Shown here: positions 435 to 60,200 of the stretch, piece by piece | How positions within the stretch are numbered: the first letter of the stretch is position 1 | How the letters are laid out: every line of letters begins with the position of its first letter | Origin: Marsupella aquatica | Lineage: Eukaryota > Plantae > Marchantiophyta | Direction of reading: 5' to 3' | DNA length: 64,000 nucleotides | Assembly: GCA_973895155.1 (NCBI GenBank) | Contig: OZ316893.1 | Coordinates: 18,542,857 to 18,606,856, forward strand | Translations under genes and position numbers: made by a program | Notes under the pieces: model-generated | The model's database searches: none | Seen by the model: the letters and a program-made list of their open reading frames with translations, nothing else | What the model was told of the DNA's origin: nothing

Positions 435-446
435 TGGATCGGGACC

Positions 447-16990: not shown

Positions 16991-17019
16991 TTATAGTTTA
17001 CACATTGACAGATGGATTA

Positions 17020-25239: not shown

Positions 25240-26240
25240 CTATTCAGCTAATCCCAAGCTCATAATCCAAGTCAAGCAATTCAAATCCATTGCTTGACCA
25301 AGGACCTGGCGGCGTGAACTCTTTGACACTAAGGCAACTGCAGTGGTGCCTGTCAAAAATCCCATAGCACGCTCCCTCTCATCAGCAGTAGGCTCCACTA
25401 ACTGCTGGAGAGCTGTGTTCCACACAAGTCCAGGACCACCTGCTCTGAATGCATATGAAGCAGAGTGGCTCACAAGAGTGGGTAATGCACAACGTGGGCG
25501 CCCAACTACATTGACCATTGCCAATGGAGATCTATCAGGTTGGGTCACACCCTGTGCACGATGCCTTGGATCCAAAATATCATCCACCACTAAGGCTGGT
25601 GAGCGTGGAATGTTGTCAAATGTACACTTCAGCACCTCACATGGGATCAAATTAGTCCACCACAAGCGTGGACGATGTGCACGAGAACCCACACGTGCAG
25701 CATCCAATAACATAGCAGGTCCAATGCAAGACCTCACCTGGTGAACATTGGCAACAATCCGACTACGGTCATCACCTAACAATGGCACATTCTCCAAAAT
25801 GTATGTTGGAGACTGTATTTGATGTAGCTGAAGATGACGCAACACCCATAACATCTCCCACAACAATGCAGAGCGTGGATCATGAAGTCCATGCCCAACG
25901 CCAGCTCTAGATTGGCCCTGACATGGCCAACCAGCAATCACCAAATCAATGGGGCCAACACGATGCAAATGATCCGCCCCCAACAATGAAATATCAGCAG
26001 GTAGTGCATGCTAATAACCACAAATAGCATCCACTGGCAGCAACTATGGATATCTATCCACCAACATAGCCACATGCCGCAATGAGACCTTCCGTGCTGT
26101 CGCATTTATCTCCACATACAAATAACGACGCACAAGAATTCATGCCTGAAGAACAACAACCAATCCAGTGCTAATCCCACCAAATAGATTCAACAAGCAA
26201 ATACCCTTCGATGGATACTACCAAACAATAGGAGTGGTAT
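25240..26240 (-). pseudogene. C5 cytosine DNA methyltransferase domain within the Gypsy polyprotein
   Basis: One reading frame with 4 stops upstream of 25986: motif I LLNLFGGISTG, II YLYVEI, III ADI, IV DLVIAGWPCQGQS, VI ILENV, VIII RAHRPRLWW, IX EPTADERERAMGF, X RQVLGQAM. Confidence 0.93.
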
Positions 26241-28811: not shown

Positions 28812-29252
28812 AGAGCTGATATGAAGGCAAGAGGGCAGCTCGGGAAATTTTAAGGAGCGCTGTTGATGCTGGGACCAGGGATGGCGATGAAAGCGGCAGA
28901 GAGTGCTGAATCGGTGAAGGAACTCGGGAGATAAATGTATTGGTACAATGGGAGGACTTTCTTGACGATGAGAAATCAGAACCACGTCAACACCGCAACC
29001 AACGCGGGCAACAATACCTAGGGCAGCATCGGCAACCGGCTCATCCAAAGACCTAGCCGAACGCGCTACCGGTACAGTAGTCTGCAAGATTTCGATCGCG
29101 GTTAATCTAGAGGTTACAAAAGAATAAGAGAACTTTGAAGAGTTGTGGTCGGGATTGCGGCAGGTTAGATTTCATGCCGTGATAGCCATAGCATCAGACG
29201 AGACGGCAACAAAGACAAAGACGATGATCTAAGGAGGACGAGGGAATGGTTG

Positions 29253-32200: not shown

Positions 32201-32450
32201 TCCAGTGAATAGTCAAAACTCTCTGTCACCGGCCACTACGAATCCGGCAAGAAATGAACGGGAAGCATTGGATGAGATGCTTGATATTGTGGAGCCCGGA
32301 TTTGGTAGCTTGTTTGGCCTGCCAAAGGTTACCAGACATCAATCTGATGAAGATGATTCCACAACTGATGATGAGGATGAAAATCAAGGAAATACCCGAA
32401 GTGATGGTTCACAACCTTTGAACCAATCTTCTTCTGTCTTTGTTAAGTGA
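29253..32450 (+). CDS. SMAD/FHA-domain coiled-coil protein (resembles the Arabidopsis AT2G45460 family), intronless
   Basis: Uninterrupted ~1065-aa ORF. FHA motifs LGR, SPAVSGRHC, DSSSNGTYIN, LRHGDII; long coiled coil with KQRLQGARERIVLRETQLRTFYST; C-terminal DLLASEVAGSWA motif. The true start may be a downstream ATG. Confidence 0.9.
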   Translation: MTNNVKNGDEPEIEQSLEMMVSNGRELSLNFDEVNRADAGSVPKVSSPTVPGSPKTDCQSLAQKFAEQTISKSRSDQWGLLTAVTEKATKRPQGCHIVLHNQEHVLGRIVTDSSCMFESPAVSGRHCTITRKPITFDGRIKNPGSDRVAGGIHGTFIKDSSSNGTYINKEKIRKNGPEVQLRHGDIISLVALPEHENAFAFVYREVLGVSSFKRKGSPLDRDSDVQPVGDGKRIKSTGKCVASEGPVSLDDLRQLQRSNEELRQQLEANVLEMEKMRGEFRAAEALHLVEVKELRVSVTEMYTKQIEEIRLELVSRSKGVEETAALCSQQGTTIEDLNHRLASAAQSKVDAEEAIRSHATSIAELKKRLDEEYSQHHKERAEWEANLEAALERTRMETSEELKRHSDASARLQKQQLDTIADLQEADKENRRLADSLRIKLEAERQAVIIVDEKGRRLGMQLQEERLSTENASKKAEELQEELRKVHRELVIEKEARESAAAKIASLELAMETAIRDLTLEKQRLQGARERIVLRETQLRTFYSTAAQVEALQQKQQEQLKVMLRTLEDGDGEGDYPESRKPRMHGQSGCVVDEAKIIANLASRRRSSAPDASFLLQDKCLGVHSGNADGGQEKHPLGGESCTRKAEYAEPGWMDGDTQQEDEDCSPSTSKLQTNGADVIIGVQEIVGEECGCGPKENLNTDEETQVLQDPGITSTTQLVTDTLQENESSEGQALFKDSMRLKPRFWHERRKSNLGPYALDSASRDDGVVMGPVGKVTEESKRAKNETVGLGSGRVALDISDDPGDPFPKESVGTRTVAEIDGLTADGSPVLNVGSMSGADEDAQEGKSSKKAATVCTDDLLTSEIAGSWALGTQASVHTANEEGSLRIGGDRMSHPIHNDTQLVVKEQEGTMCTDDLLASEVAGSWAAGTPASVNADNESISSDERDHPDHDEGGSQAAATLSRPRSNPRHVLLEDIMHFADPVNSQNSLSPATTNPARNEREALDEMLDIVEPGFGSLFGLPKVTRHQSDEDDSTTDDEDENQGNTRSDGSQPLNQSSSVFVK

Positions 32451-34507: not shown

Positions 34508-36833
34508 CATGGTATTGGTATTGGTATTGGTAATGTATTTTAAGCTCCGTACCATAAAAGTCAAGGAAGCTGCAACAAAAGTGAAAGTATGATGCAAAGG
34601 AATGAGCAATCAATGAAAGATTGCTCACTTGAGGATCTATATGTCCTCTATCAAACTAAGGACCTAAAGAGTCCTTGAGATGTTCCAAACCTTCTCTCCA
34701 TTCTTTATTCCAACTTGGTCATCACACAACCACCTGGAGAAAATTGGATGCATCATGGGGTGGATACAAAGGTATATTCCATGACACCTCATTTTCTGCA
34801 AGTTGGAGCAGCTTGTGGCCTTAGAATATTAAATGGGATTGAAAGATTCTCCCACTCTTCAGATTTCACATTCAAATCCATGCAAGGGAGTCATACCATT
34901 GACTATCGGGTCCACCTTCCTCTGCTGTTAGAGACATAATTTACCCTAGTTGTTTCATCTTAACTTGGTCCTACCTCAAAGACACAAAACAACCAAGCAA
35001 GCTTCTAGGATGCAATTCGTTTTTAGATTATGAGAAGGTGGACATTTTTAGAGCTGAGATTGAGGCACTTCTTCACCCCATTCTACTGTTTTAGAGCTTT
35101 CAAAATTGGTGGTTAAGCGGGTGGTTAAGCAACAGCGCACATCTTCTCTAGAAGGTCCCATTCTAAAGACAAAAGATGAAAGCATGGTTTGATGAAGAGT
35201 GTAGACAAGCTAGAGAAAAAGCTATGTCACAACAGAGGATACAAAGTTGTTGCATTGAGGATGTAGAGTAATTTCATCAAACACTACATATGGTGTTCTA
35301 TAAGGTAATAAAAGCAGGTACTTTGAGTTTCATAAGAATCCAAGGCTTTTTGGGCAGATGCTTACAGCGAGGAGAGAAACTTCTCGCTTAGACCAACATG
35401 AACTGTTAAGCTTGCAAAATCTCTGCACTTCTATCCTGATGCTGCCCGCATGCCTTTGGAGTTTGGAGCACAAATTTGGGGCACACATTTTGGGGCACGT
35501 GTGGCTAAATCAGGGTGGCAACACGTTGAGGGGATCCAAATCTTTTCTTTGAGATGGAGCTTGAGGTTAAGTCACAAACTCCATATGCCCTGACACTTGG
35601 AGAAGCAGGATTTTTCCCATTGGTTTGAGGCACTCTTCCAAACACTCAAATACATCATGTGTGTAAGAGAGTTAGAGGAAGACCATAGATTTCCTTTTCA
35701 TGCCTTGCGGTCATCTTTTGCTAAAAGTTGGTATACAAATGCTTGTAGGTGGGCTCATGCTTGGGACTTTCCTAGTCGCGGAACTTGACTACCTTAACAC
35801 TTAGCTCCGGCGTCACTAACTCTGATGTCGAGCTCCCCTATGGTCCAAGCCTGGAAGACCATCCAAGGAGGACTTAGAATGGGGAGACTTGTGGGAAAAG
35901 GGGCGTGGCACTGGCAAAGGTAAGGCGCTAAGCTGGTGACACATACTAAGGACTCAGACTAGTTGAGGGCTGGTCAGGTCATGAGAAAGAGCCGGCCTCA
36001 AGGTTGACACTCCGGACCCCTGGACAGACTTTGAGTTGTGAGGGCTTGAGTGAGAGCTCCTCTTGGGCCCAAGCATCTCTTACCGGACCGTATTCAAGTT
36101 CAATCTATTTACCAATGTGTGTTGAACTTGAATTAGGATGCTAGACTTGGGGAGATCTAGATCATGTTGGGTTACCTACCGGAGTACTTGGTTGCTTGTG
36201 CAGACAGTGAGGACCGTTGAGCAACGATCGTGTTAGGGAGCAAGTGTGGCTTTGTATGGGAGTGGCCGTCGGGGGGGTGCAAGGGACATTAAATTGCTTG
36301 CTCAAGGAGTTCCGGGGAGGCATTTGGGCACCAAGGGCACTTAGGCGTGGGTGCTGGGATTGGTGAGGGCACTGGGTGGAAAGGCCCACCACTCTCTTAA
36401 ACATGAATGGCCAACACCCCTAACAAAGCATAGATCAACACTTGAACAATAGGCTATGCACAAACTTTGGCATGATCAACTTTGGCATGTTCCTAGCCCC
36501 TGGCTGCAATATTGCATTATTATTACCAATATTGCACAAGGAATGTGAGAAATACGGAGAACAAGAATACCTGTCTATAACTATTTTAGTACAGCTGAGA
36601 CATATGATTGCTTGCTATATGGTAATGGTAAATAAATGTTTAATTATAGACTTAGTTCACACCATCTTGAAGTAGAACAAGAGAGATAGAAGGGTATTGA
36701 GAGATAAATAGTGTTTGTCAACTTTGTGATAGCTCTAGTATAGAGAATGAATATGATGTTTTCATTGCTTTCAAGTTTTATGAGGGTGTCAAACGCATCT
36801 CAGATCTTGGTCAAAGATTTGTATGCATTGTTC
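34508..36833. mobile_element. Old RTEX-like LINE copy: minus-strand 3' end plus inverted, internally deleted body
   Basis: 34508-34710 on the minus strand matches the LINE ORF2 end and 3' UTR, with a (CAATAC)n tail. 34736-36833 on the plus strand matches LINE positions ~990-1720 and ~2820-3535. Interrupted at 35774-36393. Confidence 0.8.
35774..36393 (+). mobile_element. Internally deleted AGT...ACT solo-LTR-like element inserted in the old LINE
   Basis: AGTCGCGGAACT...CCCACCACT; host LINE sequence (..TTTCCT | AACATGAATGG..) resumes after 5 extra bases (TTCCT/CTCTT). Confidence 0.8.
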
Positions 36834-37399
36834 AAATTCCAACTTCTGTTCTCTCCATAGATTCTCCAGCTTTCCTCTCCAGCTTTCCTCTCAGAGTAGT
36901 TTCCTCTCCATCAATTCACCCAGTTTTCCTCTCCATAGATTCTGAATGCGCTTCCACAGATCTCAGTCACTACCACAAAGTCCTCATTGGACCAAACTTG
37001 AAATACTTTCAAGCAGCGCAATGTGTCCCCCACACTCCATCTGCCAGGAATCGCCCCTGCTTTGTGCACTGTACAACGTGCCCATTTTATTTCTTAAGAA
37101 TTTCTTCACCATAGTATAGGTCTTTCCCATATCCCTGATCCTGTTTCTTCACTATGAGCTCATTTGGATTCTTGAACTGAGTTTTTTTAGCCACCCAATG
37201 GCTCTCACCAAACCCAACACCTTGCCTAAGTACTCTTGATGCCAAACGCCCGCACAAACCTCCTTGAGCAAGCAACTTGGTGCCTCTATCACGGCCAGCC
37301 GTAACTCCCATACAATTCAAAGTCGTACTTGCTCCTTAGCATGACTGTTGTTCAACGGCCCCTACTGTGTTGTGATGCCGCCAGCACAGCTGGTAATGA

Positions 37400-40399: not shown

Positions 40400-41025
40400 C
40401 ACGCAACCAACCGCATTGGTAAGTAACCCGCCCTGATATTGGATTTCAAGACCAATGGTCTTGCCTTAAGTTCAACAGCCATTAGTAAGTAGTGTCACCA
40501 GATAGAGTCTCCCAGGCCCGCATGGCCTTGCCATAAGCTAAAGCTAAGGTTGACACCCATTGTTTGTCCAAACAGCCCCTTCTACCAGATGCTGCCCAAG
40601 CTTCCCCACTTTCTATCCATCATCGGCTGACCATGCTCTAGGACATGCCCATGGCCCACCTAGCTAACTTGTCCCAAACGTCAAGACCAGTTTGGCCCCG
40701 ACTCAAGCAACCATCTCTACGGCTCCATCTAAATCAAAAGTCCAAGGGCAAGATGCATTTGGACCTCAACATCCGCGCCCATTCTGTGTTGCCTCCCCAA
40801 TGCAATCTCCCATGGGAAATTGAATGCAACCTGGCTGCTCTTTCTGTAAGACCGGCAAGCAAGCAAGATAGCCCTTGCAAAATGAGAGGACCAAAGGCAC
40901 CCTCAAACTAAGTTGAAATCAGGAGGACATAATTAACCTCAGGAGCTTTCCAATGCACCCAAGAAGTACTTTAATGGACTTCTTGTTGAGGAGATATTGT
41001 AGTTTCTGTTTGACATTTCCCGTTA
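40400..41025 (-). repeat. Strongly diverged internal part of the AGT...ACT repeat family
   Basis: Collinear similarity to ~59085-59712, e.g. GGTAAGTAACCC, TTGCCTCCCCAA.GCAA.CTCCC.TGGGA and GAGCTTTCCAA.GCACCCAAGAA. Confidence 0.65.
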
Positions 41026-42028
41026 GTAGCTCTAGGCTCTTAATTTCTTGGTTCCAATCATGTTTGGTTCTGCGCATGTCATTCTAGCTTTTGGTTTTGG
41101 TCATCAATTGTCTCGCCTTGACATTCACTGCATAGCTTCATTCATCAACAAACTTCTCTCTTTTCTTCACTTCTCCTCTCCTCTTTCCTTCTCTCCTCTC
41201 TTCTCTTCTCCTCTCTTCTCTTCTATTCCTTCCCTAGATCTTCCCTCCTCATGTTGATGCTCCAATCCCATACAAAAAGAACTTCCTATTATTTCCTCCT
41301 TCTCTAGCCATCCTTACTTTTAAGACTTCACACTTCTAACACTTTAACCTAAGCTAATTGAAGGAGAATTCTCAATCTGGTCTCCGCATACCAGACTTTG
41401 CTTCTTTCAGTTTGGCTCATTCCTTTATGTTCTCAAGCATAGTGTTGTTGTATAAACCAATTGCAGAACAAAAGGGTTTAATAGGACTTCCTCGCTTCCC
41501 ACTTTTAAATTATGTCCTTTCATATTCTTTTGTAGTCATAACCTTTCCCCTCAAGTTTTCATATAAAAGCATGGTTGTTTTCCACTGTTATAGTTGTTTT
41601 TCATTCAGGAATTTGAGTCTTGTTCTTCTCTTTACAACAAACCCGACTCCAACAACTAGCAACACTTCCTCTGAAATTCTCTTTTCAGCTTAGTTGTCAT
41701 TTGTTTTCTCAACTTCAATTTGGTAAAACTCTGCTGGCCTTGATTCTTCCTCCTATTTCATTCAGAGATTGACGTTAGAACCACATCGCTCCTTTCATCC
41801 TTGGGAATCCGCACTTCTCCCAACTAAAAAGTTTTCCAAAAGAAAACTTCCACCAATCAATCAAATCCAGCAGTCCTCTTTACACTTTCCTTGACGTTTT
41901 TCCCTTCATGCAGTTGACACCATATTGATCTCATTTGTCACTACACAATTGTTGCTCATTTCATTCTCACTAAGCAGAAGCTTCTTCAAAGTACACTTCG
42001 TGAATAGTTTCACCATCGAGTCAATGAC

Positions 42029-43106
42029 ATGTGCCATGGCCAGCCCATCATCCCATTCTTGAGCACACTAATCACTTGGACACCTCCTCGAGATGGTATT
42101 ACCTTGCTAGAGTTTTTTGGTGGCATTTCTACAGGCCTAGAGGGGGTCTTGCAGTCTGGCATGATGGTGAAAAGGTACATCTATGTGGACACTAACCCAT
42201 ATGCAAGGAAGGTGGCTCAATCACAGATGCTGGAATTTTCAACTAGGTTCCCACAGCAGTTTACACCTAGTCCATGGAAGGCAAGTTTCACTCTCTTTCC
42301 TCCTGATGTTCAGTTGATACAGCAACAACACATAGAGCTACTTGGTTCCTTGGCCCTCATCATTGCTGGATGGGAATGCCAAGGCTTCTTTGTTGCAGGT
42401 TCTGGAGCTGGGTTGAGTGATCCCCGGTCAGCACTCTTCATGGACCTGGTACATCAACTAGGCTCAGGCTCTTTACCCTGGTGTTGGTTATATCATTCAG
42501 AACACACCCTCTCAATTTGACCAATGAAAGAACATACAAGAGGATTTTCTTCTAGTCCAACGCTATCTTGGTCCACCATTCTTGATTGATGCAGCCCAAT
42601 GTGGGTCTTATGCGCATTGTTTACGTAATTTTTGGACCAATATTGCACGTATTAGCTTACTACAGTTGGCTCTAAAACATACGGTCAAGGACCCTACATT
42701 ACAGGTGGACCAGATTTTGAATGCTAATAGCTCTTGTCAGCCCTTCACTCGGCAAGAGAGAGCACCTTGGTACCCTGCTAACACCATTGGGGAGCCAAGA
42801 GGTGCTTGGCCCACCTTTGTTTCATTTCCTGGCACCCATGCCTACCAAGGGGATGGACCAAGGCTGGTCTACCATCACACTTTGGATACATGGGATGAGC
42901 CAAGGCCAGAGGAACGAGAGCGAGCTATGGGTTTCCAAACTGGCACTACTGGTGATGTTAAAGTGACTAGGCTAGAGAGAAATTCTCTTCTTGGCAGAGT
43001 CATGGATCTTAATGCTTTAACATGGCTTTTGGTTACCTGTATTCTTTTCCAGATGCATATTTTTTCCTCTAACCTTAATGAAGTTCTTACCTACTTAGCA
43101 TCCTGA
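42029..43106 (+). pseudogene. C5 cytosine DNA methyltransferase domain (frameshifted)
   Basis: Motif I LLEFFGGISTG, IV LIIAGWECQGF, VI YIIQNT, VIII GSYAHCLRNFWTN, IX EPRPEERERAMGF, X NSLLGRVM. Confidence 0.9.
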
Positions 43107-43110
43107 TGAA

Positions 43111-43147
43111 GTCCCGGAGCTTATAATACATTACCATTACCATTACC
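43111..43147 (+). mobile_element. Extremely 5'-truncated (37-bp) insertion of the RTEX-like LINE
   Basis: GTCCCGGAGCTTATAATACATTACCATTACCATTACC matches the LINE 3' end at 3740-3772; AAGT on both sides (43109-43112 and 43148-43151). Confidence 0.85.
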
Positions 43148-44429
43148 AAGTACATTTACCCATCCTCTCCACTCTACGTTTCACTCCTAGTGTTGGGGGG
43201 GAGAGGTACCCTATAATGTGACTGAAATTTCAAAATCAGAGCATGGCATGGACCAGATCACACCTGGCAAAGAGGCAAGCACATCAAGTTCTTCTAGTAC
43301 ACCAATTAGCTCTACGCCATGCGTTGCAAATTTCCAGTTTATGATGGGTAATCAGTTGAGTAAGAAGCAATGGGATCAGGTCAATTTGCTGTTGAGCTAT
43401 GAGGATGTGTTTGCTTTCTCAATGAGAGACTTGGGCAAGTGCAAGGTGATGCAATTATCCATTGAGCTGACCGATGAGAGACCTATTTATCGGCAGAGAC
43501 ACCGGTTGAGCAAGCATGAGTGGCAGCTGGTGGATGAGAGATGCTTTATGAAGTATGTCTTATGTTGCCGGGGTGGAGCACAGGGAAGCAACAAACCCAA
43601 GCCAAGATTATGCATCCGGACCAGTCTTCTCCCTTGATGAGTGACGTGCTTGGCTTAAGGCGAGCAAACTAACCTTGAAAACTAGTTGAGAATCCTCTTC
43701 TATAGCCCTGGGTTACCAAGCTTCACACCAATGTAGACTGATTACCAATAATATTTCCTACGACCCTTGCACTATTGCTACTGCATGGAAAGCCCCTCGG
43801 AGATTCAAAGGACTTATCCACCATTGATCAAAAAGGGGTACCAAGGCACAGATTAATTTGCGGAAGGCATGGCTATGCATAGTTCTTGTGGTCCTAACCT
43901 TCAGTTTTGGAGTCCTTTTTACAAGCTTCCGCACCCGACATCCTATCATGATTGTAGCTCTTCATCCTTACTCCTGTCATAGGCAAGACACATAGTCATA
44001 AAATGGTCTAGCTCATCCGACCTTGACACCAGTTCAGACAATCTGCAATACAAGGGAAAACAGCCTCCTGTTGTCACTATTGTTAGTATCCCAACCTTAC
44101 TTCCTCAACAACAATCTCCATTGGGAATTCAACAAGGACTGACTTATCAGAATGGGAAAAGAACATTGCACATCAACGCGGTTCTGCTTGCAAGAATGCA
44201 CACCATGTAATTGAATAATGTTCTCCCCCCTTTTTCCACTTTAGTCCAGGGGTTTAAATACTTTACAATCTATCCTAAAAATGGGGGTAATGGCCACCTT
44301 GATCCTAACAAGCTATTTCCTCTTCCTAACCTAGTTCTATTTGCCGATCTTTCAACCTTCTTGTAAAGCAGGTGGCAGCCCTAATTCTCTTTTATGCGCG
44401 GCCTCCCACTTGGTTGCCTCTGCATCCCC

Positions 44430-44982
44430 ATACTACATGAGAGATGTGAACCCCATGAAGAAATATCGAGAACAAGAATACTTATCTAGCACTATCTCAG
44501 TACAACTTAGACAACTTATTGCTCAGTATAGACTAAGCTCACACCACCTTGAAGTAGAACAAGGGAGATGGAAGGATATTGACAGGAAAAAGAGGGTTTG
44601 TCAACTATGTGATAGCTCTAGTATAGAGAATGAATATCATGTATTCATTGCTTGCAAGTTTTATGAGGGGGTTAGGATGGCATCTCAAATCTTGGTGAAA
44701 GATTTGTATGCATTGTTTGGTCTGCCCCCTCAACAACTTGGAAGATATATCTTTGCGGTGGATAGGGAAAGGAGAATAGGTTTGGAAAATCTTTCAGGGC
44801 TCTCTAGGTCCATAGGGCTCTCTAGGTCCATAGTTTCTTTGAGGACATAGTTGTCCTCTTCTGAGCAATCTCTTTTGGTTGCTCTTTTCTTTGATTGCAT
44901 TGTACTTTACTTTTTGTGGCAGCTCCTTTGACTTTCATGGTCCCGGAGCTTATAATACATTACCATTACCATTACCATTACC
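44430..44982 (+). mobile_element. 5'-truncated RTEX-like LINE copy (~550 bp)
   Basis: Near-identical to 3248-3772 (one substitution seen, plus an 18-bp tandem duplication); ends in (CATTAC)n. Confidence 0.95.
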
Positions 44983-45779
44983 TTGCCACCACTGCATCCA
45001 TTCGATGGCGAGCCTAGCGCTGCAATGCAGCTCATTTTGCTGAATTAGGCTTCGTTCTTCCCTTTCCCCCGACGTCTCACCCGCGATCACCCACTAAACA
45101 GCTTCCACATAATCATACCTTTACACTGCCTCTCACCATTAAGATCCATGTTGACCTTGCCTACTTGTCCGGATCGATCTCGTACCTCAATTAAGGAACG
45201 CGCAAAATAGTACCACCAGAAGTAGCGAGGATCCGCAAGTGAATGCCCAAAAGGATATCGACGTGTAAGGGCATTTATCCATTGCCAGAGTTGAGCTAGA
45301 AGGCTTAATGGTGGGTCGGCTTCATGCTAGGGCAGCCGCATCCTGACCTGGGGATTGTGCTGCCACATCAAGTGATATACAACTATAGGGTTGGTCTCCA
45401 AGTATAGACCAAACCCGTCCTCATCTACAAGCTCCCGGAAGAACTGGTGTGGCGTCCAAAAGGTCGCAGGTCCAAAGTAATTTCCTAATCTATAATTATG
45501 TACACTTGCTTCTAACCATCTAATTACATTCTCCGTAGGGGTTACCCTTTCCCAAAATGATGTCTTCTCCCTTTACCCACACGTAAATCAGTCGAATCAA
45601 AGGGAAACTTGTCAGTTCAGATAGTATCCCCCGCACAGGCCACTACGGCCGGATCCCTACCTAGCGAATAAAAATGAGTCATGGTAAATTGGGGTAAGAC
45701 GGTAAGATCTATAAAGCTCATCCACTCGTTGGATACTATAAGGTGGGAGGTGAAGTAGGGATTGAAGATCACACGCATC

Positions 45780-48480
45780 TAATTCCTCTTTGTATTGTGC
45801 CATCTTGCCGTTTGGAGAAAGGTAACGAGACGAGGAAGGATATACTTCCCACAGTTGGTTTGGATCTTCCTTGCCGTCCAGGACTTCATAACTACCTCCA
45901 CTAAATCAAAAACTTTCCTATGTAATGCTAAACTATAGAACCAGTGAAGTCTCCGTGTTGGGCAGTTGGGATGCATGGTGTTTGCATCCGCCATTAGCGC
46001 TATGAGGGTGGCCAACGTGCTCTCTCTCCAGCTCGGATAGCAAGATTTGCGTGACTCTACTGTTGGCCCTCCCTCCTAATCTAAAGTATAAGTCTTTGAG
46101 TTGGGTGAACCCTATGGCTCCTGAACACTCAAAGAATGGCAGCATAAACCTGATCCGGACCGGGATGTCATACCATATCCGTTCACAATCGTCCAGGCAA
46201 ATGGCCCTCTTGTTAACTCCTACTGCAGCTAAAATAATACAAAGGGTTTATAAACCCATAGCTTCATCAACCTTGGTAGCATTCCGGGATACTATATTTT
46301 GTCCCGTGAATATTCTTCATAAATTCACGCTCACCTTCTTAACCTGTTCCAGCTTCCTCTTGTGCACCGGATCTGCTAGTGCCTCCTTCAATAATTTAGC
46401 CGTCGTGGTAGCTTTGTCTCGCAAGCTCTGTATTTCCAGACAGGCCTTGTAAGTTTCCTTCAGGATCCAAACCACCTTACTGCATTGCTGGATGAGCTCC
46501 TTACCAGCTACATCTTGCAGCCATCTCGTCCTCGTCCTCTCCCTCTCTCGTCTTTCTTCTTCTTTTTCCAACGCAACAACGTATGCAAACTTCTCTAATT
46601 GCCCAAGTTCATGGTTGGTTTTCCTTGCTTCTTGGAGCTTCTTGTCACACTCCAAAGCCCCAAGTCTGGCTAATGCCTCTTTCTCAGCAAGCACTTCCGC
46701 AGTTTTCCCTTGCGCAGCCAACTGGCCGGACAACCAGATTGCCAATTGTTCTCCTTCTCCTACTCTCTGCTCCAATCTTTCAATTTCTCTTTGCAGCTTG
46801 TTGGCCTTCTGCTGGGATACAAAGCCACACATCGCATGTTGGGCGGTCACCTCCTTTAACTCCTCACTGAGTTTCCGTCGAACGCTTTGTTCGTGTCGCA
46901 GCCGCTGGTCCATCTGTTTGATGGCTGCTTTAGTCTTCTAGATCTCAGTTTGTAGATTTGCTTCTCCTTCTTTGGCGGTGGCCATGCGGTGACTTCATTC
47001 TTCCTCCTTGTCAACCAACATTTTTTGCAACTTTTCTCTCTCCTGTTGGGCTCTTCCTAGCTTGATCTTTAGTGCTTGTGTCCCAACCCATTCTGTCCGG
47101 ACCTCCTCCTGGGTCTGCTGCAGGGTTGTGGTTGCTTCTTCATTTTTCTTTCTCTCCTTATCTAGTAGGTTTTTTTCTTCTGTCAGCTGCTTCAATATGA
47201 TCTTGTTAGATGCAGACTTCTTATGTACCTTTGCGAGGAGTCGCTCAACCTTCTCTTCTACTTTTCTCAGCTTCTTTGAGTCACGAGTCTTGCCCTGAGA
47301 CTCTATGACTATTATCCTTGCCATCGCCTTGGCCTCCTTCAATTCCCTCAACCTACTGCATAGGTCCTTGGTGTTGGGGACTAGCTTCCCTATAAAAGCC
47401 ATGCATTGGGCAAAAGTCTTCAATTCTGCCAGGTTGGTAGTGCCCGGGAGTTTGGACAGCGTGGGTTGTTTAAAGGTGGCTTCCCTCCTTTCTTCTTCTT
47501 CTTCTTCTTCATCTTCATTTGGGAGGTTCACCGCCCTCTTTTTCCTCTTGAGACTCTTACGACATTTTTTGGCTTGCTCACTCAGGTTCTGTAGGGCCTT
47601 TGCTCCTCCTTTGCTTTTTGCATCCAAATTTAGGGGTGTTCCCCCTTGTCTTCCTCTTTGTTGTCCTCAAAGTCCTCCTCGTTGTACTTCGGTGGATCCA
47701 CATTGACGTTGGCTGTGGATCCCAACGCAGTCCCAACTTGCGTTGTCCAATGGGCCTCTACTTGATCTTTTGGCTCCGATTCACCTGAGTCCAAATTTTC
47801 CAACAGAGCTCTACTGATTGCCTCCTGGACACCAAACACATTGTGCACTACAACCCGCAATTGATATGCTAGTAGCGACGGGAACTTCAAGCAGCCCTTT
47901 GAATCAATCATAACAGATACACTTGCCTTCCATAATTGAAGCGGGTGGAGGCATCCCACGAACAGAGCTCTTGCGACAACAATTCTTGGTAATGTGGCGT
48001 GATGGTATCCGCTCTTAACTATCACCCACTTGGTGCAAAACTCTATGAAGTTCCGATACTCCCTCTGCCGGATGGCTCCATACTACATGTTTCCCTGGTT
48101 TATCTAGACCTCCATCTACTGCAAGAAGGCCGCCATGCCCTCTTTCTTGATTGGGTCTACTTGGTAAGTGAGCGGCAATCCCCCCGCCCTGGGTAGTCCA
48201 AACATGTCGCACAACTTTGGGTTGGAGAAAGTATAAATCTTCCCCTTGTATGTAATGAACATCCCCTTGGGTGACATCGTCACCTTAGTAATTTGCAAGC
48301 AGATTTCTCCTGCTTGAGAGGTCAATAGATAGCGGTCCATCCGGACCAAGCCATAAATCCCGGCTCTGTTGAGTATTGCTCAGCTCTCCTCAATGCATTT
48401 TACCTCCGCAATGGAGTTGCGGATCTTCTCCTCTGCAGACAGAGCTCCCTTCTTGTTTTTAGGCGGGGGAACCTTTGCTC
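45780..48480 (-). pseudogene. Decayed accessory ORF of the 5.4-kb insertion (globular N-part, acidic/basic linker, long coiled coil)
   Basis: Successive minus-strand ORFs 48116-48349, 47630-48025, 46995-47627, 46317-46913 and 45779-46145, with E/K-rich heptads; no gag or pol motifs. Confidence 0.55.
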
Positions 48481-48953
48481 TCTGTGCTCCTGCCACCTCC
48501 ATTTTTGCTTGATGAAATTAGTAATGTGAGGAGTGAGTGGATAGTTGCACCGCGATCCAGCGTATGCTTTTGTCGGGAGGGAGGGACGATGAGTGCTCAA
48601 TTGCTTTGTGAGGCAAATCTAGCCCGCCTCTCTACCTTAAGCTTGAAGGATTTCCTACTTAAATGGTTCGTGAATGTCCGGAAGGGAGGGACAGTCGCTA
48701 TCTTGTAAGCCTGAGGCGTCTCGGTCAAGCGCCCCATTGATGATGGCCCTAATCATGGTGTTATTATGGGGGCTACTTATGATTGCCCTCTACTCATGAC
48801 TTAGTAAAGGCACGGCACTTGACGTGGTTGTGTACACAGCTCCCTCTTGTTATGATTGGTGGCGATACCTTAAGTACCCATTATGGTTATTCCAACTATA
48901 TTAGGGTAATAATTGTGCTTTACTAAAATGACAAAAAGATTGGGGTCCGCACA

Positions 48954-51300
48954 TCTGATCCAGCCCTCCAACTCTGACTTTGCAGCGGCTACAATGATAC
49001 CAGCAAAGAAAGATTCTGGTGGACTATGGACAGAGAAGAGGATGTGCGGTGACTACATGCCACTCAATCTGGTCACACCTCAAGACATGTACCCCATGCG
49101 TATCGCTGAAGAGCTATTTGACTCCATTGGAGATTTTGATATCTTTACCCTTGTAGACTTGCGGCAAGGCTTCAACCAAATCATTATTCCAAGACGACAA
49201 CTTTTCATGGGAGCAATCAACTGTGGGAATGGCTGGTGATGCCATTTGGACTGAAGAATGCACCAGTCTTCTTTCAACAGGTGATGGATCAAGTACTAGA
49301 AGGTGTTGATTTCCTGAACCTGAAATGCTATATTGATGATGTGTTGGTTCATAGCAAGGGTTTTGAGCAACACTTATTACATCTTGAGGAGCTGTCCAAG
49401 AGGCTGAGAAATGTTAATATGAAGATTCATCCCAAGAAGTGTGAGTTTGTTGTTAACTCAATGGTTTACCTTGGGCATCGAATCATTCCAAATGGCACTA
49501 TGGCTCATTGGGCTAAAGTGGTGTCTATTCTTGAGATGCCCAAGACTACTGATACTAACACTTTGCAAAGCTTCATTGGGCTATGTAATTACTACAGAAT
49601 TTACATCCAGGACTTTAGAATCATTGCTCACCCATTGTACGTTTTTCTTAAGAAGGATATTACCTGGAAATGGACTGAAGACACTCAGGTGAAATTTGAA
49701 ACTTTGAAGGAAAAGTTATCAAGTTAGCCTGTTCTCAGAAGAACTGATTTCAGCAAAACATTCATTTTGCATACGGATTGGAGTGCTCCAGGTATTGGTG
49801 CCATTCTGGGTCAATCTGATGGGGACAGGCCGGAGTATGTCATTGCTTATGCGTCTAGGAGCAATAACAAGACTAAGAGCAACTACTCCTCTTATGAAGG
49901 CAAATGCTTGGCTATTGTGTGGGCTGTCATACATTCAGGCCCTACCTATATGGCACTAAGTTCATGCTCTTTACCGATCACCAGCCACTCAAGTGGTTGA
50001 TGACCAATGATAAGCTTACCGGCAAGCTAGCTCGTTGGGCCCTCATTCTACAAGAACATGAGTTTGAAGTTATTCATAGACCTGGAATTACTCACCAGAA
50101 TGCTGACACCATGTCTCACAGTCCTTTGATCACTTCTACAGATTTTCAGGTGCATGGCAAGATTTTGATCATGCTAGTCTTCACTTGGGGCCTCTGCCTA
50201 TCTTGCCTTGCTTTGTTGCAGCGTTGTTGACCAACCAATTGTGGACATCTAGGAGGATTTAAACACTCTGAATTCTTGCAGCACAAGCAACACCCGCCAG
50301 GCATGACCACTACTCAAAGGGACCGGATACAACAATGGTCTAAGTGCTACATATGGAAGGGAGATCACCTAGTCCACTGTTTGCCACAAGGGGAGAGAGT
50401 GGTTCCACCGATTGCTGATAGGGCTGGCTTGGTCAAACAAGTACATCTTGAACTTGGGCATTTGGAATCAAGCGTACTTATAGTTTGATGGCTCCTCACT
50501 ACCATTGGAAGGGGATGCATGCTCAGATTTGGGATATCATCGCTAGGTGTGAACAATGTGACAAAGTAAGAACCTCATTCTCTTCTGACAGCCCATGCAT
50601 ACTTCATCCACTCCCTATTCAGGGATTGTTTTACCGCTGGTCTTGTGATTTAGCTGGAGAATTACCTTTGACATCCAGGAGTAACCTCTACATAATGATC
50701 ATGATTGAGCACTTTTCTAAGTGGATTGAATTGGTTGCCTTGCCTAATAAGAGTTCACACAACACTAGCCAAGCTTTTCTCCAGCAAGTGCTTAGCAGGT
50801 TTGGGGCTTGTGCATAGTGCCTTACTGACCAGGGCTCTGAATTCTGAGGAGAATTTCAGGACCTAGTTGACCATGCCCTCATTGATCATTGTAGAACTTC
50901 AAGGGATCATCCTCAAGCGGATGGTACAGACCTGCAAACAAGGATTACAGAAAATATGCCTCACCAAGAACAAGAAAGATTGGGGCTGGGCACTGCCTTA
51001 CATTGCCATGGGGTACCGCATGTCCAACCATGCCTCCTTGTCCAACTTCTCTCCATCTTCTATTGCTTCTCAAATGCTTCAGGTGGTGGACTTGGACTCA
51101 ACGGAAACCTGGTCTACTATCATATCAGAGAGGGCTGTCTTGTTTTGTAGAGTCATGCCTATGGCTTTGGACAACCTAGCAATTGCCCAACATTGTGATA
51201 CACTCAGATATGCACACACACACACGAGAAGGGAGCTTCAAGCCCAAGGTGAGGCAGTTTGATGTGGGTGATTTTTTTTAACTTCAGCGCCAGCCTAGTG
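48954..51300 (+). pseudogene. Gypsy copy C RT, RNase H and integrase
   Basis: ORFs 48913-49239, 49236-49727, 49767-50000, 49904-50230, 50485-50817 and 50867-51262, collinear with copy B. Confidence 0.9.
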
Positions 51301-51489
51301 ACACATTGGATACCTCCACCAGACACATTATTCTCAAAGTTAAGTACATCCATCCTTCAGGTGTGTTGGAGTTACAGGGAGCAGGTGGTCGTACCTCAAA
51401 GATCATGCTAGGAATTGTGCCCCTTGTCATTTTCCTAACTTGGATCCTACCAAATGTTGTGACTTCTACTTGGATTCCTCCGGTGAATT

Positions 51490-51644
51490 ATCCCTGTAAG
51501 GTGTGTTACAGGATTGATGATGCTGACCAAATGTTGTTGTGTGACCATTGCAATGGTGGTTACCATCTCTTTTGTTTGCAACCTGAGCTTCCACAAGTTT
51601 TGGAAGGGCTATGGTTCTGTCCTTCTTGTTCTCCTTCACCATGA
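51490..51644 (+). pseudogene. PHD finger at the integrase C-terminus (intact C4HC3)
   Basis: CKVCYRIDDADQMLLCDHCNGGYHLFCLQPELPQVLEGLWFCPSC. Confidence 0.93.
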
Positions 51645-51850
51645 TCCTCAGCCCGTTGACCATTTCCATGCTCAGGTCTGGGGGGGATACAGGGGTTTAC
51701 TTTCATGCCCCAACATTTCTTCATCTTGGTGTTAATGGACAACCATGCATTACATTTCTGGTTTTCTATTTTGTGACAACCTGGATGCATATGGTAATGT
51801 CTCGATATCTTGTGCTACCGGCTCTATATGTCATGCACTTATTACATGCT

Positions 51851-54215: not shown

Positions 54216-57200
54216 CTTTTTTCTTTTTTTTAATCTGAACTGATTGCTACTGAACGTAGATGCACAACGGCTGCAGATGCTGCTGTAGAAGGAGAAAAAA
54301 TAACTGATAGACTTTGAAACTGGTGGGAGTTACAATTTTTCCAGAGTAACCACAAAGTTTGATATATAACAAATAGACGGGCGGAGAGGTTGGGGGAACG
54401 ACCGAGAGCCAGGTCAAGAAAGGAGGTGAAAGAATGACCACCCGGGAGGAGAGACACAGCCAAAGCCCGTTTGTAGAACCAGGCAGTCCGTTTCCAGGCC
54501 ATTGTGGCTTGAGTGCACATACAAAATATGTGCTTATTATCTTCAGGGATGCCGCTGCAAAGGGGGCACATTCCATCCCCATGACCACATTGGAATGCTC
54601 TCCTGCCAGTGAACAGTCCAACAGCTAGGACCTGCCATATAAAAAAATTCCCATGATTTGACAAATCTGATCTCCATAACCGCCTCCATCTCCTTTGCCA
54701 TGTGGAGGGGGAATCTGAGGAGCCCCATCTGATGTTCAGCAAACAAGAGTCTGCGCCAGATTGGTCAATAAATTTATATGCCTGAACGCTACTGAGAACC
54801 CGTGGGGAGTAGTGATTTTTGAGTCCCTTCCAAAACCATTGAGCTGGAACAAAGGAGGAAGAAGCTGATGGTGGAGGACCATCCTGAAAAAGCCGAAGTA
54901 TGTTGGTAAGAACAATGATATTCAAAGCCCCTAGTCCACGTAACCTAGAGATCCTGTTCAAAAAATCAATCCAGATACCTAAGTGCCTGTTCCAAAGATC
55001 TAGTACACAACAAATATTTAATCGGGAGCAAGCAGAAGCAATGAGAGGAAGAACTGGAGCTGGGAAACATTGAGTGCGAAAGTATATTCTGAGGAGGTCT
55101 GCTATGCGCCATCGAGCAGGAATGGCTAGAGAGGAAGAGCTCCAGAGCAAGTTCCCCCGAATCTGAATCCATGCTTTCCAAATTCCTTTGGTATATCTCA
55201 TTCCACGAAAGCTCGATGGGGTTGAGAATAGGAATCTGTCCATTGGAGTGTATCCCAATGTTCTGAGGAGAACCAACTGTTTCCATGCAGCCAAATGAAT
55301 ATTAGCAAAGAATAGCAGTGCCCAATCCGAAGATGGGTCAGTAATCATTCTAACCGACCATCGTGCTAGGAGGGCTGAAGCTTGAGTTTGGATATCTTTA
55401 AATCCAAGGCCGCCATCCTGTTTTCTGCAGCACATACGTTCCCAAGAAACAAGAGGTGTTTTTTTGCCACCGTCTTTATTATAACCCCAAAGGAAGTCTT
55501 TACATGTCTGTCGAACCATGTTAGAGAGGCTACCAGCTATACGTGTATACATCATGTGGTAAAACAGTCATTGATAACAAAACTTGTTTTACCAATAGAA
55601 CCCGTCCGGTGAAGGAGAAATTTTTGTTAGACCAGCTAGAGAGCCGATTCTTAAGTTTTTTCATACAAAAATCTTGAATTTGTTGGTTGGATATATATAT
55701 CTTATCCGAACAGAGCACCAAGATAGCATGAAAGCTGTCCATGCGGGATAACAATAACATTTGAGTCTATTAGCCATTGCGGAATCAATTCTAGACAGAA
55801 AGTAAGGACCTCAGTCTTTTCTCCTCATAATATACTTTTGCACTCAATGTTTCCCAAAGAACAATGATATTCAAAGCCCCAAAGACTCAATCGAGACGAG
55901 GCCAGAGTCTCTCTGATGTATCTATGATCCACTCGGTCAAAGGCCTTAGCAAAATCCATTTTCAGAAACAATGTCGGTACGTTGTTTGTTTTGAGCCAAT
56001 TGCTAGCTAACCATGCAATAGATATATTATCGAGTATCTGCCATCCAGGGACAAACCCTGTTTGTTGATTATTTACCATCTGAGGATTGAAGAAACCTAC
56101 CGAGCCGGATAGCAATGAGCTTAGCAATTATTTTATAAGATATGTTGAGGAGAGTAATCGGTCTCCAATTAGACAATGACTTCTTGTCTGAGGATTTAGG
56201 AACAAGCTTAACAACCCCTTCCAAGAACCGTGGTGACATTATACCGTCATTCTAGAAAGAAATGAGCATTGCAAGAAAACCTGGAGCAATGAAGTCCCAA
56301 CATCCCAAAAATACCTCAATGGTAAGACCGTTGAGACCCGGAGCTTAATTTTTTTGAATTTGCCATGTAGCACTAAACAGTTCCCCGATAGTCGGAACCA
56401 AGTCTAGGAATAGTGAGTTAGATATAGATAGGCAATAGGAGGAGAAACTCAGGATACTCCTCCAAGCTGCAATATTCAACGCAGACTCCGGGGCGTAAGG
56501 GGAATACAAGGCACTATAGAATTTGCCCACCTCAGTAAGGATCAGATTATGATCTGATGTGGTCAAACCTTCAGCAAGACGTAGGATAGGGATAGCTGCC
56601 CGTTGCTGTTGCACCCTTACAATGTTGAAAAAAAATTGGTAGATGCATCGCCAACCCCAAGCCATCGGACCCTAGACTTCCTACGAAGATTTAATAGCGT
56701 CAAGAAATTCCAAGTCACGAAGAGCAATTTCTGCTTCCCGTAATTCAGAAAGCAAGTTTCCAGAATTTGAGGCATTAGCAGACGTTCTAAGGGACAATAG
56801 TATCATCCTGAGAGTCTCCATGGCTATTTTGTTTTTCCGATTTGATCGATTGGATTTTCTGGTATTCTTTACGGAGACACCGACACGCCAGGAAGAATGA
56901 GGCTATGGGGTCGGTGATCCCCGGTGTGTGATTCATCCATGCTTGTTCCAATAGTACTCTATTTTGCTCCTTCCTCAATACCGCGGGGTTAGCTTTGAAA
57001 TAAGAAAACTTGCGTATCGAATAGTTATTGTTTTGCATTGAGTTAACAGAACATTCAAGACATGGAAACGGGGCAGTGATCTGAAAGTGGACAGTTATGG
57101 TGATGGGAGAGGGATATTACTTGATGAATCCAGGATCCACGGTTGCTTATGTATATTCTATCCAACCGAGAGTGCAGGATACCGTTGAGAGTATCACGCC

Positions 57201-60200
57201 TCCATGTGAAACATGAACCTGAGAAAGAAATAGTGATTTTAAGAACATCATATAGGTCAAAACAACATTTCAGGTCCCTCCAGGCTGCTAGCTTAGATCC
57301 AGAGAGCAATGAAGAGTGGCCTGCAACTGAGTCAATAACTTTTTCTGTCATATTAAAATCTCCAGAGATTATCCAATTTTCACTTGATAAAGATAGCAAT
57401 AGAGCTTCCCAGAGTTTAGTACGAATAGCCGGATCGTTAGATGCATACAAGCCCACGATGCCAAAGGAGCCAAATTCACACTCTATGTTGGCCCATGTAG
57501 TACTACTAAAAGGTATTATACCTAAGTTTCTTACCTGGAAGGAGGGGTGAATGAGCATGGCCGCCCCCCCCCCCTTCCCAGCCACAAGGTGAGCAACAAT
57601 GGTTTTGAATCCTGGTAATATGAAGGAGAGAGCAGAGATGAGACAAAATTCATCCGCCTTGATCTCAAGAAGGGTAATTATGTCAATTATGGAGTGACAC
57701 ATATCGTGGATCCACTGATGGATGATATATTTACGGTTAGGGACACACAGACCTGAAACATTCCAAATTGCAATTTTTAATTGAGGATCCATATGTGATG
57801 TATCTACTTCTATGAGGGCCTGTAATCTTACTCTATGTCTTGATTATGTGAGGGTGTTCCCAAAACTGTCTCATATTCGGAGCTGGAGGATCCACTACCC
57901 TGACCGGATTCATCATCCATAGACGTGGCATCTTCTTGGGATGCGTATCCTCCCGAAGGATCTCCAAAAATTTGGTTAAAAAGAAGAGAGGTGCAGGACT
58001 TACCTGGTAATTTGTGAGCCGTTGATGCAAATAGCGAACCCAATTTTTTTCTCTTCTTTATCACGTGGTTGGGAGATGGCTTAACTATACAACTGTGTCC
58101 TGGTCCATTTGATGTTGAGCAAAGGGGGAACACTCTCTCCTTCCTATTCCATGCGCTGCCTAGGAGATTTACTATAGGCTGAGACGCCAGCGAGGAGGGT
58201 GGAGGCCGGTCGGTGAGTATACTGGACTCGTTGGGGTATTGTCATTCCCTTGCTCTCACCATCTCTAGTCAGATTGATTTCTGGCATCTCTGGGAGGGGC
58301 TGGTTCATGTCCCATAGTAAACAAGCTTTATCATGTGGAGAGGAGGAGTCCTCTGATTTGGAACAGTAGTGTAATATTTCTCCCATCTGTTCAAAAACCT
58401 GCAGCCCACTCCCTTCCAAAGCTAATTCACAGAATCTGAGTTCGACCCAAATTGGCATCTTCCATATGAATGGAGAATGAAGGGAGAAAGCTGGGTCCTA
58501 GGGCGCACAGAATATGTATTTGTTGCCAATATACCACGGTGAGCTCCCCAATGCTGCCCGTTTATGATCCGGCAATCCAAAGGTTACGAGGAAGTAATTC
58601 TTCCCCACAAACTTATTACTTTTTATAATCCATTTTCTTTTAAAGCAAAATTCATCTTCAGCCCAACGTAGGAATTGCTGTATAGGTGGTACTCTCCCAA
58701 CAAAAAAGAACAGTACTGCTTGAGATAGTAACTCCGCTACTATAATGGATGTTGATTTGATACTTACCTTCATTTGTAATAATACCTTTGGAGTATCTGT
58801 CTGCAATTGCGTGGCCAATAGGGACTGTATTGCTGCTTTGCACTTTGGTGATAACAACCAATTGTTGATAGTGCTCGTCAGTGGTGGACCTCGTCACCCA
58901 GCGCCCTCACCAATCCCAGCACTTGTGCCTAAGTACCCTTGGTGCCTGAATGCCTCCACAGAATACCTCGAGCAAGCATCCAAGTGCCTCTAGCACCACC
59001 TGCGGCCACTCCCATACGAAGCCGCACTCGCTCACCTACACGACCGCTACTCAACGGTCCTCACCGTCTGCACAAACAACCAAGCACCTCGGTAAGTAAC
59101 CCCTCCGGATCTAGAACTCACCCAGTCTAGCATCCTAACTCAAGCTCAACAGACGTTGGTAAATAGGTCAGCGATAGGTCCTCCCGATGCCATAAGCCGG
59201 AACCAGAAAGAAAATGTCCACCGTCCGTCCAGGACAGCTCCTTCCTTGGGCGCGGCCCGGGTTCCCCCTCGTACCTATCCATCACCAACTGACCGCCCTG
59301 ACCTCAGGACATGTTCATGGCCCAAATAGCGTAGCTTATCCTAAACTTGTCCCAAGCTTGTCTCAACACGCCGGGACCAGAACAGCCCCGACTCTAACAA
59401 TCGCTCCCGGTTTGCCCCATTGATGGTCTAGGGACTGAGCGCCCTTGGGACTCAGCCTCCATACCTACTTGGCCTTGCCTCCCCAACGCAAGCTCCCTTG
59501 GGAGGCTGAACGTGGCTTGGCTGCTGTTCGGCAGGATTTGGCAATCAGGCGAGCTAACACCCGCAAACCACGAGAACCCATGGCACCCCCGAACCCATCT
59601 GAGCTCAGGAGGGCGTGGCCCTCCTCAAGAGCTTTCCAACGCACCCAAGAAATCCTCCAACGGACTTCCTGTTAAGAAGATATCGCCATTTTTGTTTGGC
59701 GGTTTCCCTTAGTGTCGCGACCGCCGCGGCTCACGACTTCGGCTCGACCTTAGCCCCCTAGGGAGACACCACTCCCTTCATATATGCTTCTGGAGACCTG
59801 CCACCCCCGGACCAACTTTGGTCCCTAAACATTTGGCCCCCAACCCGGATCCCATCGCGCGTAATGGGCGCGCCACCAACTGGCAACGCCCATAACTTTC
59901 TTGATAGGCATCCGCAAGCGGAGTGCCTTAGCCCGTTGTGACCGGGCCGACCCAGTACTCATGCCTAGGTCCTCAGGTCTGATCGCCGCTCGGGGCCCTC
60001 GACCGGCCCAACCCGGATCGGGCCACAACTTGCGCCCCAAGCGTCCGTTGCCAATGGCGTCAACTCCATTGGCCTAGGGCCCAAGAGGAGCTCACTCCCA
60101 AGCCCTCAGAACTCAAAGCCCATCCAATGGTCCGGATGGCCATCCTTGAGCCCGGCCTATTTGCCCTTGACCCGACCGGCCATAGGCTAGTCCAAGTCCT

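Follow-up and report, generated by a model that had tools for sequence, protein, structure and literature searches.

A Ty3/Gypsy family of the green lineage with a DNMT3-type methyltransferase, an integrase ending in a PHD finger and permuted ends

The closest described relative of the retroelements considered here is KnitGypsy-Dnmt3, or 'Gypsy-DNMT3', of the alga Klebsormidium nitens (de Mendoza 2018, PMC5890265), in which a Gypsy pol is joined to an intronless DNMT3-type domain; its repeats are called DIRS-like in a line of the legend to Fig. 4c, while its domains are those of Gypsy. In the text of that paper and in three of its supplement files the term 'PHD' occurs 0 times, although the drawing of Fig. 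4c may show such a domain, and a mechanism for the ends of the element was not found in the text. KnitGypsy-Dnmt3 was described from one alga, whereas the family dealt with below reaches land plants; its most likely identity is that of KnitGypsy-Dnmt3's land-plant branch, the Klebsormidium element having been compared by description only. No Klebsormidium-named sequence was among the matches listed.

Several other systems share individual traits with this family. EpiLTRs (10.64898/2026.05.21.726589) are LTR retrotransposons joining a cytosine methyltransferase to a chromatin reader but, according to the accessible part of that report, they possess a chromodomain, an adenine methyltransferase and an enzyme that is sister to DNMT4, and they are stated to be distinct from Gypsy-DNMT3. 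PHD fingers in retrotransposons have been called widespread by the group of de Mendoza 2018 (PMC6673714), and it has been proposed that such fingers take part in site choice (PMC6673714, 10.1101/2021.11.30.470311, PMC2774666). The carriers covered by the accessible text of these three sources (CR1/L1-type elements, REM1, cnidarian PYGO-like fusions), however, belong to other classes or arrangements, and none has a PHD finger ending the integrase of a DNMT3-Gypsy. Chromoviruses (Tcn1, Chlamyvir, Galadriel, Tekay; PMC6317226) resemble the family in the Ty3/Gypsy domain order, in a histone reader at the integrase C-terminus and in Tcn1-like self-priming, but their reader is a chromodomain, whereas the family has a PHD finger, a DNMT3, permuted ends and, in the tree described below, an RT clade of its own. 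Phygy, from a non-chromovirus clade of Physcomitrella (PMC6317226), is likewise a bryophyte Gypsy of 7.7-10 kb with a 4-bp target duplication; it is set apart by its description, according to which its target is NCGN, its primer site is of the tRNA-Trp type and extra domains are not listed. In the present family, none of the 19 parsed targets is NCGN, and a TGG primer site is absent after the 5' repeat, A1.

DNMT3-Gypsy elements, PHD-bearing retrotransposons and EpiLTRs with a reader and methyltransferases are, accordingly, already in print. A PHD-ended DNMT3-Gypsy, or its integration through a circle, was not described in the titles and abstracts searched (a search without most subscription papers, figures and Repbase), nor is this architecture described in the accessible parts of PMC12344493, PMC7466625, PMC12885004 and PMC10714607. 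The family itself was named in just two of the papers retrieved.

Two decayed copies and their surroundings

The window, i.e., the whole stretch of 64,000 nucleotides of the liverwort Marsupella aquatica that was analysed, contains two decayed Ty3/Gypsy copies of different subfamilies, copy A on the plus strand and copy B on the minus strand. Both very probably belong to one Ty3/Gypsy family of the green lineage, characterised by a DNMT3-type methyltransferase and by an integrase that ends in a PHD finger. A bryophyte host would be likely from the nearest relatives of the two subfamilies, too.

Copy B, which is nearest to Marchantia (72% to P0047 across RT-RH), displays the domain order gag-PR-DNMT3-RT-RH-INT-SH3-PHD from about 27.7 to 21.2 kb on the minus strand. 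It comprises a gag-like region and protease (26312-27668), a DNMT3-type methyltransferase with legible PC, ENV and RxR catalytic motifs (25195-26238), a decayed reverse transcriptase and RNase H (23590-25061), an integrase including the SH3-like C-terminal domain (22110-23405), and a frameshifted PHD finger with its stop (21965-22104). These are followed by a polypurine-tract-like run (21791-21798), repeat B1 with a 2-nt spacer and TGTC, a putative internal integrase site (21653-21790), repeat A2 (21324-21650), and repeat B2 (21183-21323), which is 92.8% identical to B1 and has GACA at its end. A partner A1 for A2 was not found within the 64-kb window. When contigs from sequencing runs were aligned to the two copies, their depth dropped sharply in the bin of B2; joints near the repeats of copy B could be assigned to B1 as well as to B2 and were left out of account.

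Copy A, whose subfamily is nearest to Calypogeia- and Sphagnum-type sequences, is a single element split by insertions, as is evident from its alignment to the intact relative P0150. Residues 23-547 of the latter correspond to 42035-43544 (plus strand), which encodes the DNMT3-type methyltransferase and a linker, and residue 548 onward picks up at 48934; an insertion of about 5.4 kb of other sequence (43545-48933) lies at this exact break (547|548), between the DNMT linker and the RT. The remainder, all on the plus strand, consists of a decayed reverse transcriptase and RNase H (48934-50401), a likewise decayed integrase zinc finger, DDE core and helical linker (50402-51233), the SH3-like integrase C-terminal domain and linker with a stop and frameshifts inside (51234-51470), the PHD finger with the pol stop codon (51495-51644), and a polypurine tract of seven G (51680-51686), after which repeat B starts with ATACA, the part of the 3' repeats of this copy that was parsed. 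A gag-protease-DNMT N-terminal piece of the same subfamily is found at 14426-16962 (plus strand), where 16766-17003 recurs at 42033-42266 with 92% identity; the piece may be the 5' part of copy A or else a separate copy. Sequencing-run contigs aligned to the two copies comprised many sibling sequences and had different letters at several of the breaks in copy A. There was no match to the element among the viral contigs searched, and no RNA dataset among the matches listed for the sequencing-run search.

Other features of the window include a Ty1/Copia element with long open frames (6881-11298, plus strand), which may be a recent insertion since the 136-nt repeats at 5387-5522 and 11666-11801 are identical, and LINE elements at 435-3773 (plus), 44430-44973 (plus) and 54230-57843 (minus), the 3' part of the first recurring at 96.5% within the insertion that splits copy A. 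A fragment of another Gypsy-like element (aspartyl protease, RT start) lies at 3923-5404 (plus). The region upstream of the copy B gag is present in copies that are 71-90% alike and occur in both orientations (27672-28811, 58880-59991, 36105-36393, 37201-37334 and 40789-41027). A 1,093-codon open frame at 29169-32450 (plus), coding for an FHA domain (PF00498, E 1e-11) and a coiled coil, has a CpG ratio of 0.72 versus 0.1-0.43 in the four elements measured and is probably a host gene amid repeats.

The methyltransferase and its co-occurrence with the PHD finger

Both copies carry the DNMT3-type methyltransferase upstream of the RT, that of copy A being detached by the insertion. Its recognition in a retroelement by the sequence-only reading of this DNA was confirmed by profile PF00145 (E 8e-9) and by DNMT3A being closest among solved structures. 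The domain is an intronless part of a Gypsy polyprotein, in one ORF with pol in P0150 and separate from it in the Marchantia models. Over the family it was observed in three positions, namely at the end of the gag-PR ORF, within pol ahead of the RT, or in the interval from RNase H to integrase (P0080-P0111, P0196-P0340); members of the last kind form one clade within the family (SH-aLRT 99), which suggests that the domain has moved.

Retention of the two domains was surveyed among the best 150 representatives for the query P0004, of which 81 were family-like; the remaining ones are Gypsy proteins of other kinds, for the most part models in which several elements are fused. The SH3-like domain is not reached by six of the 81. 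Among the 75 showing that domain, 70 carry a PHD finger, the others having a broken PHD (one), a basic tail (two) or a remnant (one), or being cut off (one). DNMT was seen in 63 of the 81, and together with PHD in one ORF in 54, where it is situated between RNase H and integrase in 46 cases. Because P0004 itself contains a PHD finger, this query favours PHD carriers. An independent DNMT query yielded 84 proteins, 23 of them with integrase and 21 reaching the SH3-like domain; PHD is present in 20 of these 21, the 21st having a diverged finger, and a chromodomain was not found among the proteins from this query. In metagenomes, the best 80 of 529 confirmed matches were analysed, which belong to one subfamily and result from a scan of 23 of 64 parts with a PHD-containing query; PHD is found in 79 of these 80 loci and DNMT in 43 of the 47 with enough upstream DNA, only one of the 80 being stop-free from the core to the PHD. 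The pairing of the two domains proposed from copies A and B is, hence, a recurrent trait of the family.

Named relatives are from Marchantia, Calypogeia, Sphagnum, Closterium and Haematococcus. Marchantia polymorpha has many near-identical gag-PR-DNMT ORFs of copy B's subfamily, with 18 members in one 90% cluster and at least five ORFs of 1,278-1,281 aa. Two family proteins, P0044 and P0111, bear bacterial names from metagenome bins, which is probably eukaryotic contamination. P0250 and P0323 are devoid of PHD, their SH3-like domain being followed by a basic tail, P-[MV]-T-R-A, with which they end; they offer a natural comparison for PHD function. With P0339 retaining a PHD remnant only, the ends of these three proteins imply that the finger is dispensable in one branch.

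The sequence-only reading had loosely likened the pair to animal DNMT3, in which case the PHD finger would act for the methyltransferase as the ADD domain does there, switching methylation on at H3K4me0 chromatin. The enzyme is indeed DNMT3-like, no reader domain of its own was detected, and the two domains so often share an ORF, mostly with DNMT next to integrase; polyproteins, however, are normally cut by the protease, and the DNMT lies upstream of the RT in copies A and B; in P0150 some 1,050 residues separate it from the PHD, and in Marchantia it closes a separate gag-PR-DNMT ORF of about 1,280 aa, which stops before the RT. Considering this varying position, the retention of DNMT without PHD in P0250, and the KnitGypsy DNMT of Klebsormidium, for which no methylation was seen in yeast, a result called inconclusive by its authors (PMC5890265), such a coupling appears improbable. 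The DNMT has an even chance of being active on the element's own DNA.

The PHD finger at the integrase terminus

According to the sequence-only reading, pol finishes in both copies with a C4HC3 PHD finger at the place where chromoviruses have their chromodomain, and with regard to position this was corroborated. In copy A, six-frame translation places the motif at 51495-51629 and the stop at 51642-51644. In copy B (minus strand), the finger extends from the first Cys at 22104 to 21971, with the stop at 21967-21965, and a frameshift following the first pair of Cys splits it. With PF00628, for which the curated cut-off is 24 bits, the copy A finger scores 45 bits (E 1.1e-11) and the 3' part of the copy B finger 40.1 bits (E 3.6e-10). 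Both fingers terminate an RT-RNaseH-integrase chain at the integrase C-terminus, after the SH3-like domain. As both copies are decayed, with several stops and frame changes, the PHD is out of frame with the integrase core in either of them, and the open frame 51282-51641 of copy A includes an out-of-frame stretch between two compensating shifts. The frame was, therefore, tested on intact relatives from liverworts and metagenomes. Integrase and PHD form a single ORF in P0001 and P0002 (both Calypogeia fissa), and the single ORF reaches from RT to PHD in P0004 (929 aa) and from DNMT to PHD in P0150 (1,471 aa), so that the in-frame fusion is established for the relatives and not for the two copies themselves.

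As to the origin of this arrangement, an RT-RH tree was calculated from 79 rows, hand-picked out of 284 units plus four added rows. In it, a branch with SH-aLRT 97 sets 34 family rows apart, and the chromoviruses fall into a group of 18 rows (SH-aLRT 91) from which the family is absent. The element might, nevertheless, be a chromovirus in which the chromodomain was replaced by PHD, considering that both domains occupy an identical terminal position, that self-priming is reported to be typical of Tf1/Tcn1 chromoviruses, and that a sister relation of the family to all sampled chromoviruses was not rejected (p 0.28). Nesting of the family with seven land-plant chromoviruses (AU p 0.008) or with four algal ones (AU p 0.009) was rejected, however; in addition, no family protein has a chromodomain, and no protein with both chromodomain and PHD was found. 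A chromovirus origin is, consequently, quite unlikely, and the position of the PHD is to be seen as analogous to that of the chromodomain. Chromodomain-bearing chromoviruses adjoin family copies at L005 (12488-15992, minus strand), L006 and L037. A separate Gypsy set (P0289, P0303, P0311, P0320, P0326), which branches beside the family in the RT tree, has a PHD finger between RNase H and integrase; P0289 and P0303 of this set also carry an adenine methyltransferase (PF05869).

The 120-aa frame of copy A itself folds poorly (pLDDT 48), and structural work was done on the intact relative P0005, the predicted fold of which (pLDDT 83.9) matches the PFV and Ty3 integrases and, in its PHD part, the ATXR5 and BAZ2A fingers (target TM 0.81). 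The closest solved structures are WSTF, KDM5D PHD1, ATXR5, CHD4 and KDM5A PHD1, with BAZ2 also near and the K4me1 reader Ehd3 among the close ones; TAF3 is last among the 60 structure matches listed. In KDM5A PHD1, L309, P331 and W335 hold H3 A1, while D312 is essential for R2 (10.1101/715474). The pocket was assessed in 62 canonical terminal fingers, these being the ones out of 70 that passed a motif search in which Trp was required. The equivalent of L309 is Leu in 48 of the 62 (Leu-Leu pair, 48 and 49), that of P331 is Pro in 52 and that of D312 is Asp in 53; the D315 and E305 equivalents are acidic in 12/62 and 25/62, respectively, and Asp is present three positions ahead of the first Cys in 31/62. 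The A1 pocket (Leu, Pro, Trp) and the R2-binding Asp of the PHD class for unmodified H3 are, by these counts, present. Two positions ahead of His, Gly is found in 55 of the 62 fingers and Trp, which at this position is part of the K4me3 cage, in none (0/62). Met, a cage residue in K4me3 readers, directly precedes Leu-Leu in 53/62, which, like the low counts of acidic D315 and E305 equivalents and the closeness of Ehd3, tells against a clean assignment.

Based on these residues, the finger probably binds the H3 tail, and because the A1/R2 pocket is kept and the cage Trp is absent, it is likely to be a reader of H3K4me0/me1. The kinship with KDM5 PHD1 and BAZ2 that had been noticed from the sequence alone agrees with the nearest structures and with the pocket; the narrower designation as an H3K4me0 reader holds in part, as the signature covers K4me0 or me1. 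Similarly, TIP5/BAZ2A binds K4me0 (2.51 uM) and K4me1 (2.50 uM) equally and K4me3 at 28 uM (PMC4291147). The safest prediction would be 'not K4me3', which would fit avoidance of promoters better than homing to heterochromatin.

Since H3 tails without K4me3 are the majority, the PHD could alternatively just retain or position the integration complex on chromatin in general, without choosing the site. This would be in line with a signature that amounts to no more than lacking an aromatic cage, with the indifference of TIP5/BAZ2A to K4me0 versus K4me1 (PMC4291147), with target duplications that have no common motif, and with the existence of a PHD-less branch; it is at variance with the strong retention of the finger over deep divergence and with its location in the position of the chromodomain, which is reported to steer integration. 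General tethering is, on the whole, unlikely, and for a role of the PHD in site choice the chances are evenly balanced.

Permuted ends and the proposed route of integration

Self-comparison of full-length loci did not reveal a normal LTR pair. Two layouts with 4-bp target duplications occur among relatives, A-internal-PPT-B and A-internal-PPT-B-A-B, and copy B reads PPT-B1-A2-B2 with the 2-nt spacer. With the L016 repeats as probes, the ends of 70 loci with enough 3' DNA from the subfamily represented by the best 80 of 529 confirmed matches were classified as B only (24), B-A-B (17), A...B-A-B (11), A...B (10) and split B (4), besides two other variants and two loci with none. In the 23 loci with a 5' A, neither B ahead of it, as in a normal 5' LTR, nor the mirror form A-B-A-internal-B was found (0/23 each); the PR-RT-RH-INT order, the DDE integrase and the target duplication are those of Ty3/Gypsy, but two complete co-linear LTRs are missing. 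The termini are TG at the start and CA at the end, and the 4-bp duplication is exact in 12 of 20 rows, with one mismatch in four, two mismatches in three (two of these rows representing one locus) and one row unparsed. A decayed NCGN target was ruled out, as both flanks match letter for letter. In L016 (11640-11820) and relatives, CpG-rich units in a short tandem array make up the end of repeat B and immediately precede the integrase site.

The G-run (PPT) abuts repeat B. By eye, the 12 bases past A1 find their complement some 31 nt beyond a TATA motif of A (the motif being parsed by eye in 19 of 21 loci), and such a self-complementary primer site is as would be expected for self-priming. With the PPT abutting B and the primer site abutting A, the LTR made by reverse transcription should, therefore, be B+A. 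The two boundaries within B-A-B differ in their constancy. Of 24 non-redundant loci, all 24 have a 2-nt spacer at the B1|A2 boundary, whereas 14 show an altered A2|B2 joint (Fisher p 8e-6). By eye, 13 of these alterations are length changes and one is a substitution; they include 2-nt collapses, the loss of 217 nt and a PPT block that was retained. Seven rows had been removed from this set as duplicates, probably wrongly so in two cases (L014, altered; L071, exact), and L068 was omitted. In L077, 134 nt ending in the PPT are kept at A2|B2, which are 83% like this locus' own pre-PPT region. The joint classes do not cluster on the tree, which is near star-like (2/50 branches starred) and contains an aberrant long branch (L073). 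Long A2|B2 inserts in L012/L013, L023 and L047/L050 were rejected as joint scars and are instead length variants of A, occurring at A1, too, in L013.

The following scenario would account for these features. Self-priming of the RNA would take place where repeat A ends, and plus-strand synthesis would begin at the G-run before repeat B, yielding an LTR of B+A. The ends would then be joined to a two-LTR circle or recombined to a one-LTR circle, and the DDE integrase would cut a near-symmetric GACA-nn-TGTC site inside the LTR, the products being either A-internal-B-A-B, which could copy again, or A-internal-B, a dead end. The PHD finger would bind H3 A1/R2 with K4me0/me1, so that insertions would avoid active promoters, and either the cDNA or the newly inserted copy would receive methylation from the DNMT3. 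Use of the B|A boundary for integration, with its fixed spacer as opposed to the varied A2|B2 joint, is what end-joined two-LTR circles would be expected to leave, and integration via a circle is moderately favoured.

The ends might, on the other hand, have arisen without any two-LTR circle, either by DIRS/PAT-like copying, where B-A-B would be inherited via the RNA, or by integrase trimming of linear DNA. Split repeats of DIRS-like appearance (A...B-A-B in relatives, B-A-B in copy B) do exist when compared with the one-line legend on KnitGypsy-Dnmt3, the repeat structure of which was called DIRS-like by de Mendoza 2018 (PMC5890265); roughly one in two A2|B2 joints is exact; and, as a two-LTR circle has two equal sites, the absent mirror form goes against a symmetric circle. 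There are, moreover, other ways to A-internal-B, namely trimming of linear DNA and B1 x B2 recombination at a later time. In contrast to DIRS, PAT and Ngaro elements, however, a DDE integrase and 4-bp duplications are present, and no tyrosine recombinase was detected in Pfam scans of family proteins. Both the target duplications and the termini TG..CA speak for the DDE integrase, B is adjoined by the PPT and A by the primer site, and the joints vary in length, one keeping the PPT, without clustering by descent on the weak tree; trimming alone could not place a B after A2. DIRS-like copying or trimming is, for these reasons, rather unlikely, and the circle is preferred. That the PHD docks the integration complex on H3 tails without K4me3 and the DNA copy circularises before insertion would, taken together, have a slight balance of probability in its favour.

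For retroviruses, the two-LTR-circle model of Panganiban and Temin 1984 was dropped in favour of linear DNA (PMC11054761), while for foamy virus cleavage of circle junctions by the integrase has been reported (PMC1180852). The likeness to the present family consists in an integrase acting on a symmetric CA-n-TG circle junction (PMC11054761, PMC1180852). In foamy virus, however, the LTR-LTR joint itself is cut (PMC1180852), whereas the putative site of the present family lies within the LTR, about 180 bp in, and the joint comes to be part of the insert.

Summarizing, the pairing of reader and writer is a moderate addition to what has been published, to which the land-plant range, the clade-wide PHD at the chromodomain position and the 'avoid K4me3' prediction are contributed here; the many near-identical ORFs of Marchantia polymorpha make the family testable in a model plant. 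The ends matter more than the pairing. Tentatively, and at somewhat less than even chances, a large green-lineage LTR clade is envisaged in which the cDNA is closed into a two-LTR circle by end-joining of the host and opened by the DDE integrase inside the LTR, under PHD guidance, on K4me3-less chromatin, with DNMT3 marking the CpG-rich site; if true, this marking of the integrase site could explain why only one of two sites is used. If the two-LTR circle is a working intermediate, LTR finders would mis-bound such elements, and the family would represent a natural case of a mechanism that was abandoned for retroviruses in the 1980s.
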